From: a virus
Strand: one strand, 5' to 3'
IMG/VR virus record: IMGVR_UViG_3300045988_170068
DNA: 64,000 nt
The translations under genes and the position numbers were made by a program. Below are positions 4,421 through 42,330 of the stretch, piece by piece. Position 1 is the stretch's first letter. Each line of letters opens with the position of its first letter. The notes under the pieces were generated by a model that had not been told where the DNA came from, did not search any database, and saw nothing but the letters and a program-made list of their open reading frames with translations.

Positions 4421-6909
4421 AAAAGTTGAATCTGAATGAAGAACAGAAGCGAGCAGTTGAGTGCGATGATGATCTAATTCTATGCATGGCTGGAGCAGGG
4501 TCTGGCAAAACAACTGTTCTCATTGAAAGAATAAGCAGACTTTGTGAAAAAGAAGATCCAAAGAGTATTCTTGCTCTTACATTTACAAATGCCGCAGCAT
4601 TTGAAATGAAGGACAGATACATAAGACGAAATCCTGGAAAGCTTGTACCAGAATTTAGAACATTCCACAGTTTCTGCTATTCTGTTCTTTGCACAGATTA
4701 TGAAATCCGAAATAAACTTGGATATCATTCTGTTCCGAGCATATGCGACGAAGCAAAGATGAAGCGTATTCAGAATACTGTTTATCTTGAATTAGGTCTA
4801 CATCTTTCTAAAGATGAATTAAATGGTAAGGTTAAATTAAGTCCAAAGCATAAGCAAGAATTTATTTTATACAAAAAGCGAATTAAAAAAGTAATGAAAG
4901 ACGAAAACATTATCACTTTCGATGAATTGTCTTCGTCTATCTGTGATTTGTTCTTCAACGAAGACCAATTGACCAATAAATACAAAGATCGATTCAAGTA
5001 TCTTCTTATTGATGAATTTCAGGATACAAGTCCTGAACAGTGGAAATTTGCAACTTCGTTCAAACATTCTAAAATTTTTCTTGTCGGCGATGAGATGCAA
5101 TGTCAACCGGCAGGGTCAATTGTAACTATGGCTGACATGACAAAAAAGAAAATAGAAGACCTTCAAATTGGGGATTATGTCTTATCATACAATAGGCGAG
5201 AAGGACGATATTTAAGATGCCTGAATTACAATAGCGGAAATTTGAATAGATATACAAGCAAAGTTACTGATATTTCTAAACATTTTGCGACAGACGTTGT
5301 TAAATTAGTTACAAGAAACCATGAAAGCAGATATACAAAATCGCATTTAACTTATGCAAGAATACATTTTCCGGGAAACGAAAATGCTTTTGTAACTTAT
5401 CTAATGAGTAACAAAAAAGGATGGTGGAGAGTAGGAAGTACTAAATTGTTTCTAACTTCTCAAAATGACTACTTTGGTCCAAGACTTAGATTGCAAGAAG
5501 AAAAGGGAAATAAAATATGGATACTTGGTGTTTACTCATCTCAAAATGAAGCTTGGATGAATGAACAGCTTGTTGCATATAAATACGGTATTCCTCAAGT
5601 TACATGGCAGCATAAAAATGTTAAATTTTCATTAGATGATGTAGACTATCTTTATTCAAATTTAGGCGATTTATCTGAAAAAGCGAATATTTGCTTGAAA
5701 GCTTACAGCAGGGACATAAACTATCCATTCTTTACAGATAAAGATAAAAATAACCATTTTTCAAAGCTTCATTTATTTGAATGCCGTGTCGGTAATATAA
5801 TCCCTGGTATATTTGATATTGTTGTTCCTGAAGAAAAATTTACATCAAATAATTATGTCGAACTTCGCAATTCATACGAACTAATTGAATCTGTTGTTGA
5901 CGAACCCGACCAGTATGTATATGGGTTAAATATTGATAATACACACAATTATGTTAGTGACGGAATACTAACTCATAATTGCATATACGCCTTCAGGGGC
6001 GCTGACAGCTCTATCATTAAGATGCTGTCAGAACTTGATTCTTGGACTCATATCTATCTTCCTAGAAATTATAGATCAACAACGCAAATATGCAGTTTCG
6101 CAAATAAAATTGTTCGTCAGTCTGGTAGCAAACTGAAGATAGAACTGATTTCTGATAGGTCAGGACCTAGTGTTACTGTTCTTCCTTCTACATCAAACAG
6201 ATATTCTGAACCTATTGGAATAGATGATTTTGCTACTTTCTGCGAAATGAATAGAAAGCTTGAAGGAACAACAGCAATTTTATGTAGATCAAACTCAGAA
6301 GTAGCAGAAGTTTGCAGAATGCTTGATGGTGCAGGACTAAACTATCTTACAGGTAAGAAGAACACAGACTACAAGTATATTCTTAAATCTGTAAAGGATA
6401 ACGAATATCTAGCAGACTGGCTTGCTTCTTACTTGAATGCAGATAAATACGCTGATTTTATTCGTATTCAGTCAATTGAAAATATGAGCAGAATTGATGT
6501 AATTGTAGATTATTTTTCAAATGTAAGGAAGATCCAAGAGAGACTTAGAAAAGTGGTAACTATTAGAAAAGCGTTGAAAGACCCTTCTAGGTCAAGGATG
6601 TCTATGGCAGTCGATATATTGACTATCTGTGGATTCAATCCCTTAGATAATCAAATTGAAGTAGACGAAAATTGTTCGTCTGACGAACTTTTTGAAGCAA
6701 TTACAGCAGTGATTGAAGAGAAGATTGTATCAGATCTATATGTAGGAACAATTCACAGCTCTAAGGGACTTGAATATGACAATGTATTTCTTTTCAATGT
6801 GAACGACTATTCATTCAAATTGAACAAAGAGGATCAGTGGAATCTTTATTATGTAGGTGTTACAAGGGCAAAGACTAATCTTGTTATATTCAAAGGAGAC
6901 GCATACTAA
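4417..6909 (+). CDS. UvrD/PcrA-like superfamily 1 DNA helicase, interrupted by an intein
   Basis: Walker A AGAGSGKTTV. Motif II LLIDEFQDTS. Motif III is split as VGDEMQ | intein | CIYAFRGAD. C-terminal VGVTRAK. The start could instead be TTG 4426, because GGAGG lies only 1 nt from ATG 4417. Confidence 0.85.
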   Translation: MKKLNLNEEQKRAVECDDDLILCMAGAGSGKTTVLIERISRLCEKEDPKSILALTFTNAAAFEMKDRYIRRNPGKLVPEFRTFHSFCYSVLCTDYEIRNKLGYHSVPSICDEAKMKRIQNTVYLELGLHLSKDELNGKVKLSPKHKQEFILYKKRIKKVMKDENIITFDELSSSICDLFFNEDQLTNKYKDRFKYLLIDEFQDTSPEQWKFATSFKHSKIFLVGDEMQCQPAGSIVTMADMTKKKIEDLQIGDYVLSYNRREGRYLRCLNYNSGNLNRYTSKVTDISKHFATDVVKLVTRNHESRYTKSHLTYARIHFPGNENAFVTYLMSNKKGWWRVGSTKLFLTSQNDYFGPRLRLQEEKGNKIWILGVYSSQNEAWMNEQLVAYKYGIPQVTWQHKNVKFSLDDVDYLYSNLGDLSEKANICLKAYSRDINYPFFTDKDKNNHFSKLHLFECRVGNIIPGIFDIVVPEEKFTSNNYVELRNSYELIESVVDEPDQYVYGLNIDNTHNYVSDGILTHNCIYAFRGADSSIIKMLSELDSWTHIYLPRNYRSTTQICSFANKIVRQSGSKLKIELISDRSGPSVTVLPSTSNRYSEPIGIDDFATFCEMNRKLEGTTAILCRSNSEVAEVCRMLDGAGLNYLTGKKNTDYKYILKSVKDNEYLADWLASYLNADKYADFIRIQSIENMSRIDVIVDYFSNVRKIQERLRKVVTIRKALKDPSRSRMSMAVDILTICGFNPLDNQIEVDENCSSDELFEAITAVIEEKIVSDLYVGTIHSSKGLEYDNVFLFNVNDYSFKLNKEDQWNLYYVGVTRAKTNLVIFKGDAY
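5101..5979 (+). mobile_element. intein (293 aa) in helicase motif III
   Basis: Starts with Cys (CQPAGSIV...). Block B TKSH. Ends ...VYGLNIDNTHNYVSDGILTHN, followed by a +1 Cys. The flanking exteins rejoin to the canonical VGDxxQxIYxFRGA. Confidence 0.8.
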
Positions 6910-12101: not shown

Positions 12102-12134
12102 GTCTCATTAGATATATAATGAGTGAATTGAAAT
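12102..12134 (+). repeat. solitary type I-C-like CRISPR repeat unit C
   Basis: GT-CTCATTA-GATATA-TAATGAG-TGAATTGAAAT: perfect 7-bp stem plus an 11-nt tail that differs by 1 nt from the I-C handle TGGATTGAAAT. Confidence 0.6.
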
Positions 12135-12235: not shown

Positions 12236-12310
12236 TGTCAATTAGTTTATTAGGTAAAACATCATAGCTTAAGATATGATAAGTAGGTTCAAATCCTACA
12301 TTGACAGCCA
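12236..12310 (+). tRNA. tRNA-like gene with aberrant anticodon arm (8-nt loop GCTTAAGA; anticodon TAA?)
   Basis: Perfect acceptor stem TGTCAAT/ATTGACA. D arm GTTT/AAAC. T arm GTAGG-TTCAAAT-CCTAC. Encoded CCA. The only well-paired anticodon stem, TCATA/TATGA, leaves 8 loop nt and a 3-nt variable region. Confidence 0.5.
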
Positions 12311-14300: not shown

Positions 14301-14597
14301 ATGGATAGAAAAGTTTTTGAAGCTTTATCTTCTGCAAATAAATTGATCAACCATCAACTTGATTGTCAAAAGGCCGCTATTCTTGATATAAAAAAGGCCA
14401 TTGAAGAAACATCGAAAGCTTTCAATATCACTTACAAACAGGGCCGCAGTGAAGGATTTGAATCCGAAACTATTGAAGACACAGCAGGAATATATGCTCT
14501 GCTTGTTGGAGCAAAATCTGAAATCGAATGTGCTGTTTCTAAACTTGAGGAAGCTAAGAACATGATGCCCAATTTTGATAAAGGAAAGAATATATGA
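14301..14597 (+). CDS. hypothetical protein
   Basis: ATG 14301 follows GAGGAG. Confidence 0.5.
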   Translation: MDRKVFEALSSANKLINHQLDCQKAAILDIKKAIEETSKAFNITYKQGRSEGFESETIEDTAGIYALLVGAKSEIECAVSKLEEAKNMMPNFDKGKNI

Positions 14598-14989
14598 AAC
14601 GAATAATCAAGAAATCGGCTGTAATCGGGATGGCTAAAGAACCGTCAAGAGGTGTTTTTTGGATAGTTGATGGAAAAGTCCTGTCATTTCCTTTTTACAA
14701 TGACATAACTTCTCCCGGCGTTGCTAAATCCGGATTGACTTACAACCACAAAAATTTGTGGCCCGATGTTAAACCTAAAGGATGCAATAAACCGTATAAT
14801 TACTACCCTCGTGGACGAGTGGAGCTAGGAAAGAAAAATCCTATCATATATGTAAATCCTAACTTCGATAAATATGATTTAGCAGAAGTTAGAAAGGATT
14901 TTGGACTTATCAATGAGCCTAAAGTAGTATTTGATAATTCAGATCATTACAAATGTTATCTAGATGACGGATGGAAGCCAGATAAATAA
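14594..14989 (+). CDS. hypothetical protein (FWIVDG...YYPRGRV motifs)
   Basis: 131-aa ORF coupled to the upstream gene (ATGA). I cannot name the family. Confidence 0.5.
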   Translation: MKRIIKKSAVIGMAKEPSRGVFWIVDGKVLSFPFYNDITSPGVAKSGLTYNHKNLWPDVKPKGCNKPYNYYPRGRVELGKKNPIIYVNPNFDKYDLAEVRKDFGLINEPKVVFDNSDHYKCYLDDGWKPDK

Positions 14990-15011
14990 CAATCGTTATA
15001 TAAAATGTAGT
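14990..15011 (+). promoter_or_regulatory. 22-nt promoter-like box (CAATCGTTATATAAAATGTAGT)
   Basis: Extended box ending 10 nt before tRNA-Leu(TAA). Confidence 0.5.
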
Positions 15012-15021
15012 AATCAAATTT

Positions 15022-15106
15022 GCTGGTGTGGTGGAACAGGCAGACACAGGGGACTTAAAATCCCTCGGAGAAATCCTTACGAGTTCGAATCTCGTCACCA
15101 GCACCA
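15022..15106 (+). tRNA. tRNA-Leu(TAA)
   Basis: Acceptor GCTGGTG/CACCAGC, anticodon loop CTTAAAA, long variable arm, T-loop TTCGAAT and encoded CCA. Confidence 0.9.
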
Positions 15107-15108
15107 CT

Positions 15109-15140
15109 GTCGTAGTCAAATTGATTACGTGGATTGAAAC
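15109..15140 (+). repeat. solitary type I-C-like CRISPR repeat unit A
   Basis: GT-CGTAGTC-AAATT-GATTACG-TGGATTGAAAC, 32 nt. It has a 5' GTCG, a 7-bp stem (one G-U) and the tail CGTGGATTGAAAC, as in canonical I-C repeats. Begins 2 nt after the tRNA CCA. Confidence 0.7.
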
Positions 15141-15160
15141 GAATCCCGTCACCAGCACCA
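15141..15160 (+). repeat. 20-nt duplicate of the tRNA-Leu(TAA) 3' end, directly abutting repeat unit A
   Basis: GAATCCCGTCACCAGCACCA versus 15087-15106 GAATCTCGTCACCAGCACCA: 19 of 20 identical. Confidence 0.85.
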
Positions 15161-16134
15161 AATGAGGGTTTGTCCTCAAGTAATGCTACTGAAAGTGCAT
15201 CCTTACGGTGGAGGTATTGGTTAACCGTTATTAGATTATTGTAAAATACAATAGAAAATAAAAGCGAGGTTCAATTCAACAGTAGTTCAATTTTGTTAAA
15301 TGAATTACTTTTGATGGTCCGGTACGATTCCGGAGGGATTGTCTTCATTCCTAACGCTTAGACCTATCTTTTCTATATAGCTGGCCACTATTCTGCCAAT
15401 CGACGGATTGGATGAGGTTTCGACCATCAGATAAACGGCTGAAAATGTATAGGCGTTTACTGCTTAACGAAATGAAGCGGGCTGTTGTTCATCTCAGGAT
15501 AAGAAGATGGCGTGCCAGCCGACATTGTTAGCCTATTTCGGTAGGTATTCGGTTAGAATAAGGAATGCTACTTATTCGGGAGCTAAATTGAATGTGCATC
15601 CTTCTGAAGTTGGAGTCTCGAAGATAACGTTTCTGAGAGATAGATTTTAAGTTAGTACTTAGAATTGAGGTTAAACTTGTCAGCTCCTAAAAGTTAATAT
15701 CGAGCAAACTCACCATAAAGTGTTCTAGCTGCTAATCTAAAAGAGAATGAGATGATTAGAAGGATTGAGCGAATCTAGATGCTCGTTATTATATTTGCCA
15801 TCTGCTGGTCCTACACAGCAGTGAGGATGGTAGGACATCCAATAACTAAGCGAACAGCCGAAATAGCGCCGGACACCTCGCCCGTTGAGGAGGGAATTTG
15901 AACAAAAAGGTGAGATATGTTCACACCAGAACATAAGGGCATATGGAATGGTGGAAATGCTTACTAAACCAAGCTGCCAGGTTATCTGATAAGAAGTCAG
16001 GATTTGAGGCAGATAAGTGATAGAATGAAGTAATCTCATTTGACTTTGAGAAGAACCTTTCATATTATCACTTAATGAGTTCTATGCGTTGCAAACACTT
16101 CTCTCATTCGGGAAAGAAAAGAAGGGTTAGACAT
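15161..16134 (+). ncRNA. ~1 kb ORF-free, structure-rich block between tRNA genes (candidate large ncRNA and/or ORF-less intron-like element)
   Basis: No plus-strand ORF. Long-range pairs TGATGGTC 15312-15319 with GACCATCA 15422-15429. Pseudoknot-like CTGCTG-GTCCTAC-A-CAGCAG...GTAGGAC near 15800-15838. An 18-mer is shared with the polA intron. Confidence 0.4.
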
Positions 16135-17189: not shown

Positions 17190-17221
17190 GCCACAATTTA
17201 TTAGATTGTGCGGATTGAAAC
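17190..17221 (+). repeat. solitary type I-C-like CRISPR repeat unit B
   Basis: GC-CACAATT-TATTA-GATTGTG-CGGATTGAAAC, 32 nt, with the same 2+7+5+7+11 layout as unit A. Begins 2 nt after the tRNA-Thr CCA. Confidence 0.65.
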
Positions 17222-18543: not shown

Positions 18544-18548
18544 TATAT

Positions 18549-18587
18549 GGAGGATTAGCTCAGCTGGTTAGAGCAACTGACTTACAT
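18549..18587 (+). pseudogene. 5' fragment of a disrupted tRNA-Val(TAC) gene
   Basis: GGAGGAT-TA-GCTC-AGCTGGTTA-GAGC-A-ACTGA-CTTACAT. No complementary TCAGT follows. Confidence 0.7.
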
Positions 18588-18630
18588 CTTTAGTGTAACC
18601 CAAATAGTAATTACCTAATATAAATGTGAG

Positions 18631-19455
18631 GTGATAAATTTGAGCAAACTTAAAGATGTAATGTCAAGAATATCAGATATGACGAACGGGAGGTATTCAA
18701 TAGCAGGAGAATTCAAAGGATATGATCAACCCTTATCAATAAGATGCAATATTCATAAACAAGTATTTGATATAAAACACGCACAATATTTACTTGAGGT
18801 CTGTAAAAATCCTAACAAAATATTCTATGGATGCAAAGAATGTAGAAAAGAAAAGGACGGCACAATTGAATTAAATTGCGAAATTTGTGGAAAGAAAATT
18901 ATCAGACCTAGAGGTTGGGCAAATGGAAACAAAAGCAAATTTGCTTTCTGTTGTAGAGAACATAAGAATATTGCCCAAAGGTTAGAATCAGGATTTGGTG
19001 ATATGATTCCATCGCATTATGGAACAAGAAAAGATTACCGATACATAGCTTTCAGAATATATCCGCATAAATGCGCAGTTTGCGGCTGGGACGAGGATGA
19101 AAGAATATTGGAAGTTCATCATAAAGATATGAACAGAGAAAACAATTCCGACGATAACTTAATTATCCTTTGCCCAAATTGCCATTCAAAAATATCAAAA
19201 GGATTGTATATGCTGCAAGGTAATTTACTTGTTGATCCCGATGATAACTACTTAAAGTTCTTTAGTTTGCATACTTACAGAACTAAATCTCCTGGTATGT
19301 CTTGTAAAGTAATTTGCGTAGAAGATGGCTTAGTTTTCAAGTCAATAACAGAATGTGCAAATCACTACAGAGTATCGGATACAACTATCAATTATGCTAC
19401 TGTATCTGATAATAAATTATGCAAATCCTTAGATAAGCATTTTGAGAGGATATAA
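18631..19455 (+). CDS. HNH homing endonuclease
   Basis: HHKDMNRENNSDDNLIILCPNCH. Several CxxC pairs. C-terminal VFKSITECANHY DNA-binding-like module. The start is GTG 18631, TTG 18640 or ATG 18661. Confidence 0.8.
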   Translation: MINLSKLKDVMSRISDMTNGRYSIAGEFKGYDQPLSIRCNIHKQVFDIKHAQYLLEVCKNPNKIFYGCKECRKEKDGTIELNCEICGKKIIRPRGWANGNKSKFAFCCREHKNIAQRLESGFGDMIPSHYGTRKDYRYIAFRIYPHKCAVCGWDEDERILEVHHKDMNRENNSDDNLIILCPNCHSKISKGLYMLQGNLLVDPDDNYLKFFSLHTYRTKSPGMSCKVICVEDGLVFKSITECANHYRVSDTTINYATVSDNKLCKSLDKHFERI

Positions 19456-19457
19456 AT

Positions 19458-19532
19458 GCACCGTGTCCTCGGTGGTCTGAGGGCTTGGCTTACATCCAAG
19501 TACATTGAGTTCGATTCTCAAACGGTGTACCA
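19458..19532 (+). tRNA. tRNA-Val(TAC), divergent replacement copy
   Basis: Acceptor GCACCGT/ACGGTGT (G1-U72), anticodon arm CTTGG-CTTACAT-CCAAG, T arm TTGAG-TTCGATT-CTCAA and encoded CCA. Starts 2 nt after the HNH stop. Confidence 0.8.
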
Positions 19533-19559
19533 AAAGTTCGAATCTTGCATTCTCCACCA
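19533..19559 (+). pseudogene. 3' fragment of the disrupted tRNA-Val gene
   Basis: ..GTTCGAATCTTGC-ATTCTCC-A-CCA. ATTCTCC pairs with the GGAGGAT acceptor strand at 18549. The 5' strand of the T stem is missing. Confidence 0.6.
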
Positions 19560-20224: not shown

Positions 20225-20293
20225 GATGCTTTACGCCAGTAGGTAGACGGCTCTTGTACAGAGAAGCCGCTGGTTCGATTCCAGCAATCATCA
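20225..20293 (+). pseudogene. degenerate tRNA-like sequence (GTA/Tyr-like loop), no CCA
   Basis: Good T arm GCTGG-TTCGATT-CCAGC. Acceptor GATGCTT/AATCATC has one mismatch. The D and anticodon arms pair poorly, and only 44 nt precede the T stem. Confidence 0.3.
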
Positions 20294-41448: not shown

Positions 41449-42330
41449 ATGGATGAAAATTGGGTAAGAATTCCAGGATATGAAAATTTTTATCTGATAT
41501 CTTCAATTGGAAGAATAAGAAGCCTTCCTAGAAATATCGTAGCTAAAGATGGAAGGCGAATAAGTTTTCATGAAAGAATTTTGAAACAATCATTAGACGA
41601 AGATGGATATCTAAATATAAGCTTAACAGATGAACATGGTCAAACAAAGCAATACAGAGTGTCTAGATTAGTTGCAATGACATTTATACCTAACCCAGAT
41701 AATCTACCTATTGTTAATCACTTAGATGGAAATAAGCAGAATAACAATGTAGATAACTTAGAATGGTGTACCGTTAGGCGAAATAATTTCCATGCTTATG
41801 AAACAGGACTAAATAAAACAAATGTACCTGTTCCTGTAACTTGTCTAGATAATATGATGAAGTTTGAGTCATATTCTGAAGCAGCTAGATATGTAGGCTG
41901 TGACATAGGAAATATAATTGAATCAATAGAAATGAAATCTTGTTGCAAAAATAGATTATGCTTCTGCAAAACTTCTGAAATTCCAGATGATATAGAAAAG
42001 TATCTATTTCTTGCAAGAAGAAAATATGATAACAACAAAGTTGCGTACAGATCTGAAATAAAATGTTTAGATTCCGGAGAAGTTTATAAAAGTATTGCAG
42101 ACTTCGCAAGACAAATAGAAGGAAAGGCTGGATATATCCAGGAATGTATAGCAAAGAAAAGGCTGTACAAAGGAAAATGTTATGTAAGGACAGAAGATGT
42201 TAGAAAATACCAATGGAATGAAACAGAGTATTGTAGATGGGTGCATGAAAGAAAATTAGCTAACTCTAGAAGAGACTATCGTTATTTAGAAAGGCTTGAT
42301 GAATATGGAAAACAAAAGAAATTTATGTAA
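41449..42330 (+). CDS. HNH homing endonuclease (NUMOD4 + HNH_3 type) with two C-terminal DNA-binding repeats
   Basis: WVRIPGYENFYLISSIGRIRS. VNHLDGNKQNNNVDNLEW. Repeats VTCLDNMMKFESYSEAARYVG and IKCLDSGEVYKSIADFARQIE. Confidence 0.8.
   Translation: MDENWVRIPGYENFYLISSIGRIRSLPRNIVAKDGRRISFHERILKQSLDEDGYLNISLTDEHGQTKQYRVSRLVAMTFIPNPDNLPIVNHLDGNKQNNNVDNLEWCTVRRNNFHAYETGLNKTNVPVPVTCLDNMMKFESYSEAARYVGCDIGNIIESIEMKSCCKNRLCFCKTSEIPDDIEKYLFLARRKYDNNKVAYRSEIKCLDSGEVYKSIADFARQIEGKAGYIQECIAKKRLYKGKCYVRTEDVRKYQWNETEYCRWVHERKLANSRRDYRYLERLDEYGKQKKFM

Follow-up and report, generated by a model that had tools for sequence, protein, structure and literature searches.

A solitary type I-C-like CRISPR repeat behind an incoming tRNA-Leu allele in the tRNA array of a human-gut phage

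Lone repeats of clustered regularly interspaced short palindromic repeat (CRISPR) type, including a validated type I-C one, are a precedent for RNA decoys in phages, where they stand without an array or CRISPR-associated (cas) genes and are known as Racr, for RNA anti-CRISPR (Camara-Wilpert et al. 2023, PMC10651486; RacrIC1 acts against type I-C). Here we describe such a repeat, unit A, in 64,000 nucleotides (nt) of virus DNA (record IMGVR_UViG_3300045988_170068; the whole stretch is called the window and positions are counted from its first letter). Unit A stands just behind a transfer RNA (tRNA) gene, tRNA-Leu(TAA), and is followed by a 20-nt copy of a tRNA-Leu 3′ end. It resembles Racr in being a lone phage repeat of subtype I-C with conserved hairpin and handle and with neither array nor cas genes. 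Unlike Racr as described in PMC10651486, where tRNA is unmentioned, the units of the window are fused 1-2 nt 3′ of tRNA genes within a tRNA array, several diverged units occur per genome, and the sequence after the unit is flanked by a protospacer adjacent motif (PAM) in sibling alleles.

Viral mini-arrays that target relatives are also comparable: the flank of unit A likewise matches close viruses beside the right PAM (35/35, TTC), and its use would need host Cas proteins. In contrast to mini-arrays, the window has a single repeat, with no second one after 15141-15175, where it is collinear with the related contig L016 for 460 nt, and its "spacer" is the phage's own collinear flank, an orphaned tRNA end, rather than an acquired insert of 34-35 nt. 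The CRISPR RNA (crRNA)-like RNAs (crlRNAs) CreA, CreR and viral Cracr share a degenerate or single repeat and a short PAM-proximal stretch; viral Cracr spacers have a median of 19 nt and a form with a single pseudo-repeat also exists (10.1101/2024.10.29.618823), and in two loci treated below, L012 and L108, the stretch is 21-22 nt. The targets of crlRNAs are cas, toxin or defence promoters, whereas the matches here lie only at tRNA-Leu nt 57-76. In the crlRNA layout a pseudo-spacer of ~19-26 nt is followed by a pseudo-repeat or terminator; the window has no second unit or terminator ~20 nt after unit A, and L012 and L108 do have a second unit at 21-22 nt. Homing-endonuclease replacement cassettes likewise place a divergent full tRNA allele beside orphans of the resident one, as at L003 and tRNA-Val with their HNH open reading frames (ORFs); unlike them, the unit A cassette has no endonuclease gene, only the putative repeat mimic. 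In engineered tRNA-guide RNA polycistrons, tRNA processing sets the 5′ end of a CRISPR RNA placed after the tRNA. Compared with these, the present layout is a natural phage one of type I-C, in which a second cut would be made by Cas5c. Unit A is best filed with viral solitary repeats and mini-arrays, but as a tRNA-fused form with its own post-PAM flank as pseudo-spacer.

Comparison with related phages, retrieved via a 131-aa ORF neighbouring the locus, shows where the 20-nt copy behind unit A comes from: it is nt 57-76, the orphaned 3′ end, of the tRNA-Leu(UAA) gene resident in this phage lineage. The same alignments show that resident nt 17-56 were replaced by a short foreign patch, consisting of a divergent tRNA-Leu(UAA) from about nt 17 to the CCA, the dinucleotide CT and unit A (Table 1). 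In 13 related contigs an intact tRNA-Leu ends in a sequence 20/20 identical to the copy. The window is 99.3% identical to L016 over 14594-15037 and 460/460 over 15141-15600, against 65% over the tRNA body (15038-15086), and differs from this relative essentially only in the patch. The contrast between 65% identity to L016 in the tRNA body and 99-100% in the flanks marks the event as replacement of an allele, not insertion with duplication. Consistent with this origin, the CCCGT of the orphan pairs with the resident T-stem ACGGG and not with the incoming ACGAG. The left junction of the patch falls within sequence common to both alleles, and on the right the final base of the repeat is fused to the base that directly follows the T-loop TTC. 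A divergent complete allele beside orphan fragments, as found here, is the mark of homing-endonuclease replacement cassettes. The full-length match of about 35 nt beside TTC that the original prediction proposed to look for is present in L001, L004, L015 and L016 (35/35 for 15141-15175), while relatives with another insert after tRNA-Leu match at 23/35.

Each of the facts that had been noticed in the DNA itself holds. Coordinates and sequence matching agree that the copy, GAATCCCGTCACCAGCACCA, directly adjoins the ..ATTGAAAC end of unit A, that it is 19/20 identical to 15087-15106 with its sole mismatch at position 6, and that the two loci diverge past nt 20 (21/35 over 35 nt). Calls by ARAGORN and Rfam agree that 15087-15106 runs from the T-loop to the CCA of tRNA-Leu(TAA) and is preceded by TTC. 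Guide position 6 is one that type I Cascade does not read. The two copies are the only matches at ≤3 mismatches in the 64 kb, and two matches arose in 0 of 100 shuffles. Besides the window, four assemblies from other ENA samples (L017/L154, L153, L163 and L164), which share 99.99-100% identity with it over 7-22 kb, carry the identical junction; since five independent assemblies agree, an assembly artefact is ruled out.

In form, the locus has a pair of direct 20-nt repeats around a 34-nt insert, and tRNA 3′ ends are classic attachment (att) sites. The locus had also been proposed to be a scar of insertion into the T-loop with a 20-nt duplication, or an att-like core. The scar stands, with a different mechanism behind it. 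What stands 5′ of the insert is another tRNA allele, meaning that more than 54 nt changed, the copies differ exactly where the T-stems of the two alleles differ, and the junction shows no microhomology. As an integrase site the locus fares no better and was rejected: the "element" would be 34 nt long, identity starts in the middle of the T-loop, and no integrase lies nearby among the tested ORFs. We consider simple insertion with target-site duplication, or an integrase core, very improbable indeed.

Table 1. Features of the tRNA-Leu locus in the window, and its arrangement in related contigs.
Feature	Position or contig	Strand	Remark
Second solitary I-C-like repeat GTCTCATTAGATATATAATGAGTGAATTGAAAT	12102..12134	+	near 5′ end of non-coding transcript
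Promoter-like motif ACAATCGTTATATAAAATGTAG	14989..15010	+	12 nt 5′ of tRNA-Leu
tRNA-Leu(TAA), incoming allele, intact, T-stem ACGAG/CTCGT	15022..15106	+	ARAGORN; Rfam tRNA 55 bits
Replaced patch: foreign tRNA-Leu nt 17-76, CT, solitary repeat, in L016-like backbone	15038..15140	+	
T-loop TTC, tRNA-Leu nt 54-56	15084..15086	+	I-C PAM sequence 5′ of copy 1
Copy 1 GAATCTCGTCACCAGCACCA, incoming tRNA-Leu nt 57-76, T-loop to CCA	15087..15106	+	
Dinucleotide CT between tRNA-Leu CCA and repeat	15107-15108	+	
Unit A, solitary type I-C-like repeat GTCGTAGTCAAATTGATTACGTGGATTGAAAC, 32 nt	15109..15140	+	
Copy 2 GAATCCCGTCACCAGCACCA, orphaned nt 57-76 of resident tRNA-Leu(TAA)	15141..15160	+	
35-nt "spacer position" after unit A, collinear with resident locus of relatives	15141..15175	+	
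Unit B GCCACAATTTATTAGATTGTGCGGATTGAAAC, third solitary I-C-like repeat	17190..17221	+	2 nt after tRNA-Thr CCA
Intact resident tRNA-Leu ending GGGTTCGAATCCCGTCACCAGCACCA, then directly AATGAGGGTTTGTCC...	L001, L004, L015, L016		
Resident tRNA-Leu, then T and a different I-C unit TGTCACAGTCATCTTGATTGTGTGGATTGAAAT, then AAGGGCATACGG...	L002, L006, L018, L020, L021		
TGTCACAGTCATCTTGATTGTGTGGATTGAAAT-type unit with deletion behind it	L013, L022		
Another unit after tRNA-Leu	L014		
59-nt non-repeat insert after tRNA-Leu	L019		
Another tRNA-Leu(TAA) allele and 162-aa HNH_3 ORF, between 27-nt 5′ orphan and 10-nt 3′ orphan	L003		

From its anatomy and conservation we infer that unit A is a mimic of a type I-C CRISPR repeat. 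It has the traits of the I-C sequence class, namely a length of 31-33 nt, a GTC(G) start, an internal hairpin, an GTGGATTGAAAC/T end and an 11-nt handle, and in length, GTCG start and GTGGATTGAAAC end it is like documented I-C repeats of Bifidobacterium and Roseburia hominis; published I-C repeats include a GCGGATTGAAAT variant that resembles unit B. Arms at 15111-15118 and 15122-15129 form an 8-bp stem, and the handle TGGATTGAAAC (15130-15140) follows at the canonical 11-nt offset. The Rfam CRISPR-DR9 match is weak (16 bits vs a cutoff of 45). Unit A is present once in the window at ≤3 mismatches, a match that none of 100 shuffles reproduced, and with only three scattered units in 64 kb and no Cas protein among the tested ORFs it is no array member; a repeat in a phage, free of cas linkage, is what viral solitary repeats are.

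The three units of the window all lie on the + strand in the tRNA region, each with a stem of 7-8 bp at the exact 11-nt offset, and the other six matches of the hairpin-handle scan have weak 5-bp stems. At the site of the second repeat (12102-12134) relatives have the hairpin GAAATATCTTCTAGAATATTTC instead; unit B is retained among relatives, and its handle there is invariant. In a comparison of seven sister units, drawn from the phage family and one metagenome-assembled genome (MAG), 96% of stem cells are paired, three pairs show compensatory double changes and the handle is invariant, and for these reasons hairpin and handle are under selection. The tRNA array of the phage holds at least three I-C solitary repeats, and most units sit 1-2 nt after a tRNA CCA. 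A MAG contig, L023 (Acutalibacteraceae), carries a solitary I-C-like unit, CACCGAGTCTCTAAGATTCGGTGGATTGAAAT, at 5340-5385 on the - strand, just past an ORF stop; it shares the AGTC/GATT G-U stem core of units A and C1.

The account that we favour, and hold to be rather probable, joins replacement of the resident allele to a role of the repeat as a Racr-type, RNA anti-CRISPR-like decoy transcribed with the tRNA. Unit A would be transcribed together with tRNA-Leu from the promoter-like motif at 14989-15010, the presumed start of the transcription unit. Copies of a conserved motif of ~20 nt, (A)ATCGTTATATAAnATGTAG, precede groups of tRNAs and small ORFs (10934, 12031, 13710, 14989, 16957, 17080 and 20533), and the motif is probably a phage-specific promoter; between tRNA-Leu and unit A there is no terminator-like site. 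Processing of the tRNA 3′ end would then free the 5′ side of unit A, host Cas5c would bind the hairpin and cut 11 nt before the repeat end (15140), and the handle would nucleate Cas7 on whatever RNA lies 3′ of it, so that host Cascade subunits would be diverted as in the Racr mechanism. Assembly of I-C Cascade is nucleated by the 5′ handle, and a 3′ stem-loop is missing from the mature crRNA (PMC7684278); one repeat upstream could therefore be enough to form a Cascade-like particle. RNA behind the handle matches, perfectly and beside a PAM, the allele that sibling phages keep unreplaced; in this account the match would be a by-product of junction formation or retention.

Several observations weigh against this account. 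Unlike typical host repeats, unit A has an AT-rich stem that includes a G-U pair. No donor of the patch was found: the exact junction and unit A each gave 0 matches in IMG/VR, and unit A gave 0 in JGI metagenomes. The stem pattern AGTC-N5-GATT-N2-GTGGATTGAAA returned two solitary matches and no array in 185,579 genomes. The same junction, with the same 54-nt period, recurs at a tRNA-Ser (L012) and at a bacterial tRNA-Leu (L108). Finally, TTC stands exactly at the empty-allele junction in 4 of about 7 sites of the family (binomial P ~4e-6 to 9e-6), which tells against a pure decoy, since decoy function sets no constraint on the sequence after the repeat.

This last result comes from examining, for each distinct unit of the family, the bases that precede the same downstream sequence in relatives without the unit. 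For unit A and for the first unit of L012 these bases are the T-loop TTC of the resident tRNA-Leu and tRNA-Ser, respectively. At 12102-12134 the empty allele has the hairpin GAAATATCTTCTAGAATATTTC and then CGCAC..., with TTC at the junction (the 35-mer is 35/35 in L002, L016 and L021), and for the units after tRNA-Leu the empty alleles of L019 and L007 read ...CATTC and then AAGGGCATACGG (33/35 in L019). The remaining sites have no TTC: unit B (CCA, then AATCTC), a unit before the promoter motif (AAT, then CC) and the deletion derivative of L013 and L022 (GTC, then G). With a background TTC frequency of ~0.02 in this DNA, the binomial P for at least 4 of 6-7 sites is ~2e-6 to 9e-6, and two TTC sites out of the four non-tRNA sites alone give P ~0.002-0.003. 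TTC, which the original prediction had named as the PAM of subtype I-C, is given as such in two sources (10.1101/2022.06.15.496202; PMC8406640).

Right-hand junctions are exact, whereas those on the left show variation of 1-10 nt (CT, T, TT, G, TAAGTAGAT). HNH-associated replacements in the family have their junctions elsewhere, at tRNA nt 67 in L003 and at about nt 49 in tRNA-Val, and for that reason the post-TTC junction is, in the genomes compared, specific to repeat-bearing cassettes. Replication slippage is an unlikely origin because none of the three tRNA junctions shows microhomology. The 35/35 match of the unit A flank beside TTC, taken alone, follows from common descent. The TTC rule as a whole needs an addition to the decoy account, which may be either selection of guides against sibling alleles or a CRISPR-linked origin of the junction.

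Recurrence outside the close relatives bears on both. In L012, a more distant relative, tRNA-Ser(TGA) is followed by G, an I-C unit, the 20-mer GAATCTCACTCGCGCCGCCA, G and a second unit. The 20-mer is 19/20 identical to nt 57-76 of the family's resident tRNA-Ser, differing at position 6, and the adjacent complete tRNA-Ser is a divergent allele that matches the orphan at only 13/20, with seed positions among the 7/20 differences. L108, a Selenomonadaceae-like chromosomal contig, came from a metagenome scan for "handle + GANTC-N12-CCA", in which 80 matches were retrieved, 60 of them ordinary arrays, and 19 of the 20 solitary matches were due to chance. Its order is rpmA, promoter, tRNA-Leu(CAA), TG, a weak I-C-like unit, a 20-nt copy, TA, a second weak unit and a terminator; the copy of tRNA-Leu(CAA) nt 57-76 is exact (20/20), and the stretch with the two units is at 354-570. 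Five related bacterial contigs lack the insert and pass from the tRNA directly to the terminator; among the neighbours of L108, the set retrieved with L27 is syntenic and without repeats and the set retrieved with SerA is not syntenic. Having been found by conditioning on the junction, L108 speaks for recurrence and not for frequency. The 54-nt period shared by the window, L012 and L108 results when a unit lies 1-2 nt past the CCA and the junction comes right after the T-loop TTC, and the two units of L012 and L108 are 21-22 nt apart.

It is possible, though doubtful, that unit A is a working single-repeat guide, perhaps of a drive-like kind; among the alternatives to the decoy this is the chief one. 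The handle followed by GAATCCCGTCACCAGCACCAAATGAGGGTTTGTCC would, in host I-C Cascade-Cas3, attack siblings that have an intact tRNA-Leu, while the carrier would be spared, its own copy being flanked by AAC and its own functional tRNA allele matching at only 21/35; cut siblings repaired from the carrier would copy the cassette in, as HNH cassettes do at the same tRNA genes. The perfect TTC-flanked matches of the unit A flank in the four contigs named above, and that of the 35-mer after the 12102-12134 repeat in three, are what such guides would need, as is TTC at the empty site in 4 of about 7 sites. The tRNA-Ser orphan of L012 fits too, its near match being to the resident gene and its seed mismatches to the carrier's new allele. 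I-C Cascade needs only the 5′ handle and a mature crRNA lacks the 3′ stem-loop (PMC7684278), and HNH homing cassettes do occupy the same loci. On the other side, the match to relatives is explained by descent and requires no selection, no downstream repeat in the window would define a 3′ end, and 3 of about 7 sites have no TTC. The unit A cassette occurs in one clonal lineage only among the relatives compared and is not visibly sweeping. In L108, which is bacterial chromosome, a guide that cuts would target its own genome, and decoy and guide roles for units of one phage are in tension. The one-repeat guide put forward in the original prediction thus keeps its predicted 35-mer beside TTC in four related contigs, yet that match follows trivially from descent; what keeps the idea alive is that the junction between repeat end and post-TTC sequence recurs at other sites and in other genomes. 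The further proposal that solitary I-C repeats placed at former TTC sites constitute a natural CRISPR-guided homing or gene-drive element alongside HNH cassettes seems to us unlikely.

Alternatively, CRISPR machinery, and not selection of a guide, could have left the junction as its footprint, which we likewise think rather unlikely. In one route a phage cut at a TTC protospacer would be repaired from the matching host I-C spacer, copying in the upstream repeat; in another, half-site integration by Cas1-Cas2-Cas4 would attach a PAM-trimmed end to a phage-borne repeat at its spacer-side border. The product of either would be the repeat end followed by the first base after the PAM, and loss of the PAM would also give escape from the spacer. 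Recombination between spacers and protospacers of phages and CRISPR loci was reportedly described in staphylococci by Varble and colleagues in 2019. A footprint accounts for right-hand junctions that are exact at independent sites and left-hand ones that vary, and relatives do carry GC-rich, host-like units (L010, GTCGCCCTCTTCACGAGGGCGTGGATTGAAAT; L013, GTCGCACCTTCAAGGAGGTGCGTGGATTGAAAT). Genuine I-C arrays from metagenomes (L037 and L097) moreover have spacers that start at tRNA nt 57, and because of them T-loop TTC sites can be said to serve as PAMs in nature. Their spacer, GAATCCCGACACTCCGACCA..., begins at nt 57 of a tRNA-Pro-like 3′ end and from its second base matches the tRNA-Pro 3′ end of L023 at 18/19 nt.

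Units A, B and C1, however, have AT-rich stems unlike host repeats, and a footprint by itself leaves unexplained how a whole foreign tRNA allele entered with unit A. No host array with the 35-mers considered as possible spacers (GAATCCCGTCACCAGCACCAAATGAGGGTTTGTCC, which follows the unit A handle, CGCACAAACTAGAAAAGAGTGAGTGGCAAGGAATA, AAGGGCATACGGAGAAAGTGGTCG...) was found; when the 2879 spacers of the 60 unrelated arrays from the metagenome scan were compared with the phage family, nothing rose above chance. The stem pattern searched in genomes returned from IMG/VR only the known relatives and one match in a coding region, and looser "handle + GANTC..CCA" patterns gave there, apart from L012, only chance matches in coding DNA. 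The body of the incoming tRNA matched in IMG/VR only a phage tRNA-Leu that is unrelated and differs in its acceptor stem.

A regulatory crRNA-like RNA of the CreA/CreR/Cracr type, with which Cascade would bind the 3′ end of a tRNA gene without cutting and tune its transcription, be it the phage's own gene, a sibling's or the host's, is quite improbable. The 19/20 match of the copy to the phage's own tRNA-Leu beside a TTC flank, with its mismatch at position 6 and divergence thereafter, is of the expected form, and the repeat-21-22 nt-repeat arrangement of L012 and L108 falls into the size class of viral Cracr spacers. Known crlRNAs, in contrast, hit promoters of cas, toxin or defence genes through at least 9 PAM-proximal pairs, whereas here the end of a tRNA gene would be bound to no evident benefit. 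Similarity of the window to relatives continues for hundreds of bases, as it would for a scar, and the orphan of L012 mismatches the adjacent tRNA in the seed. Folding of the region gave only ordinary stability (z -1.2 to -2.7); the orphan could compete with the true acceptor strand in the precursor, which in itself does not speak for a function. There is no credible ORF within 15038-15140.

Returning to allele replacement as the origin of the locus, the 3′ side of tRNA-Leu is a hot spot for repeat units: four different inserts follow tRNA-Leu among the relatives (Table 1), and ~15 distinct sequences follow such handles across the loci of the phage family. The original prediction had reckoned with relatives that show the repeat unit without the duplication as evidence against it, and this is partly the case, as L002, L006, L018, L020 and L021 carry a repeat, albeit a different one, after an intact tRNA-Leu. 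Judging from the alignments, alleles have commonly been replaced in this phage family with orphan pieces of tRNA genes left behind; the tRNA-Val region of the window is a third such case. At 6429-7161 of L003 the resident tRNA-Leu is replaced by the other tRNA-Leu(TAA) allele with its 162-aa HNH_3 ORF. The tRNA-Val locus of the window (18544-19559) is rearranged into a tRNA-Val 5′ part, a 274-aa HNH ORF (18631-19455), the 3′ part of another allele and a 27-nt 3′ orphan of the resident gene, AAAGTTCGAATCTTGCATTCTCCACCA, a gene that is intact in L002. A conserved, hairpin-rich segment of 59-62 nt (TTCGCCCAACTTGAC...GGTTGCATTC) follows tRNA-Leu in L019 (4517-4575) and L007 (8397-8456), where other relatives have an I-C unit.

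The wider sequence is that of a phage of ~147 kb derived from human-gut metagenomes, with a helicase, an SbcC-like protein, an NAD ligase and HNH endonucleases; the helicase is distantly SPO1-like (~25% identity to Bacillus phages). Among 29 ORFs tested there was no Cas protein and no integrase, and no anti-CRISPR (acr) gene was recognised near unit A. A further homing-endonuclease-like ORF lies at 41449-42330 (PADLOC HEase, E 5.7e-19), and the genome is rich in homing elements. The tRNA array spans 11.3-20.2 kb, with 17 tRNAs by ARAGORN and 18 by Rfam, the extra one being at 20225-20293 (38.5 bits), missed by ARAGORN; the ARAGORN tRNA at 12236-12310 has an irregular anticodon loop ("ta"). The stretch of about 1 kb from tRNA-Leu to tRNA-Glu (15161-16134), in which no ORF is credible, is conserved among relatives except for variation in its 5′ domain and may be a large structured RNA; a RAGATH-36 match in Rfam at 15315-15481 is sub-threshold (43.4 bits vs a gathering score of 70, E 3.8e-7).

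In the current view, viral solitary repeats are RNA decoys and viral mini-arrays are acquired weapons, and the present locus falls between the two. An orphaned tRNA end accounts for the 20-nt copy, and the family-wide junction rule is the part worth following. If it holds widely, it would either record the pickup of host repeats by phages through CRISPR-linked recombination at targeted protospacers, or mean that single repeats can act as type I-C guides, with Cascade needing only the 5′ handle. The locus further shows that cassettes which replace alleles, some of them HNH-based and others repeat-based, have phage tRNA arrays as their arena.

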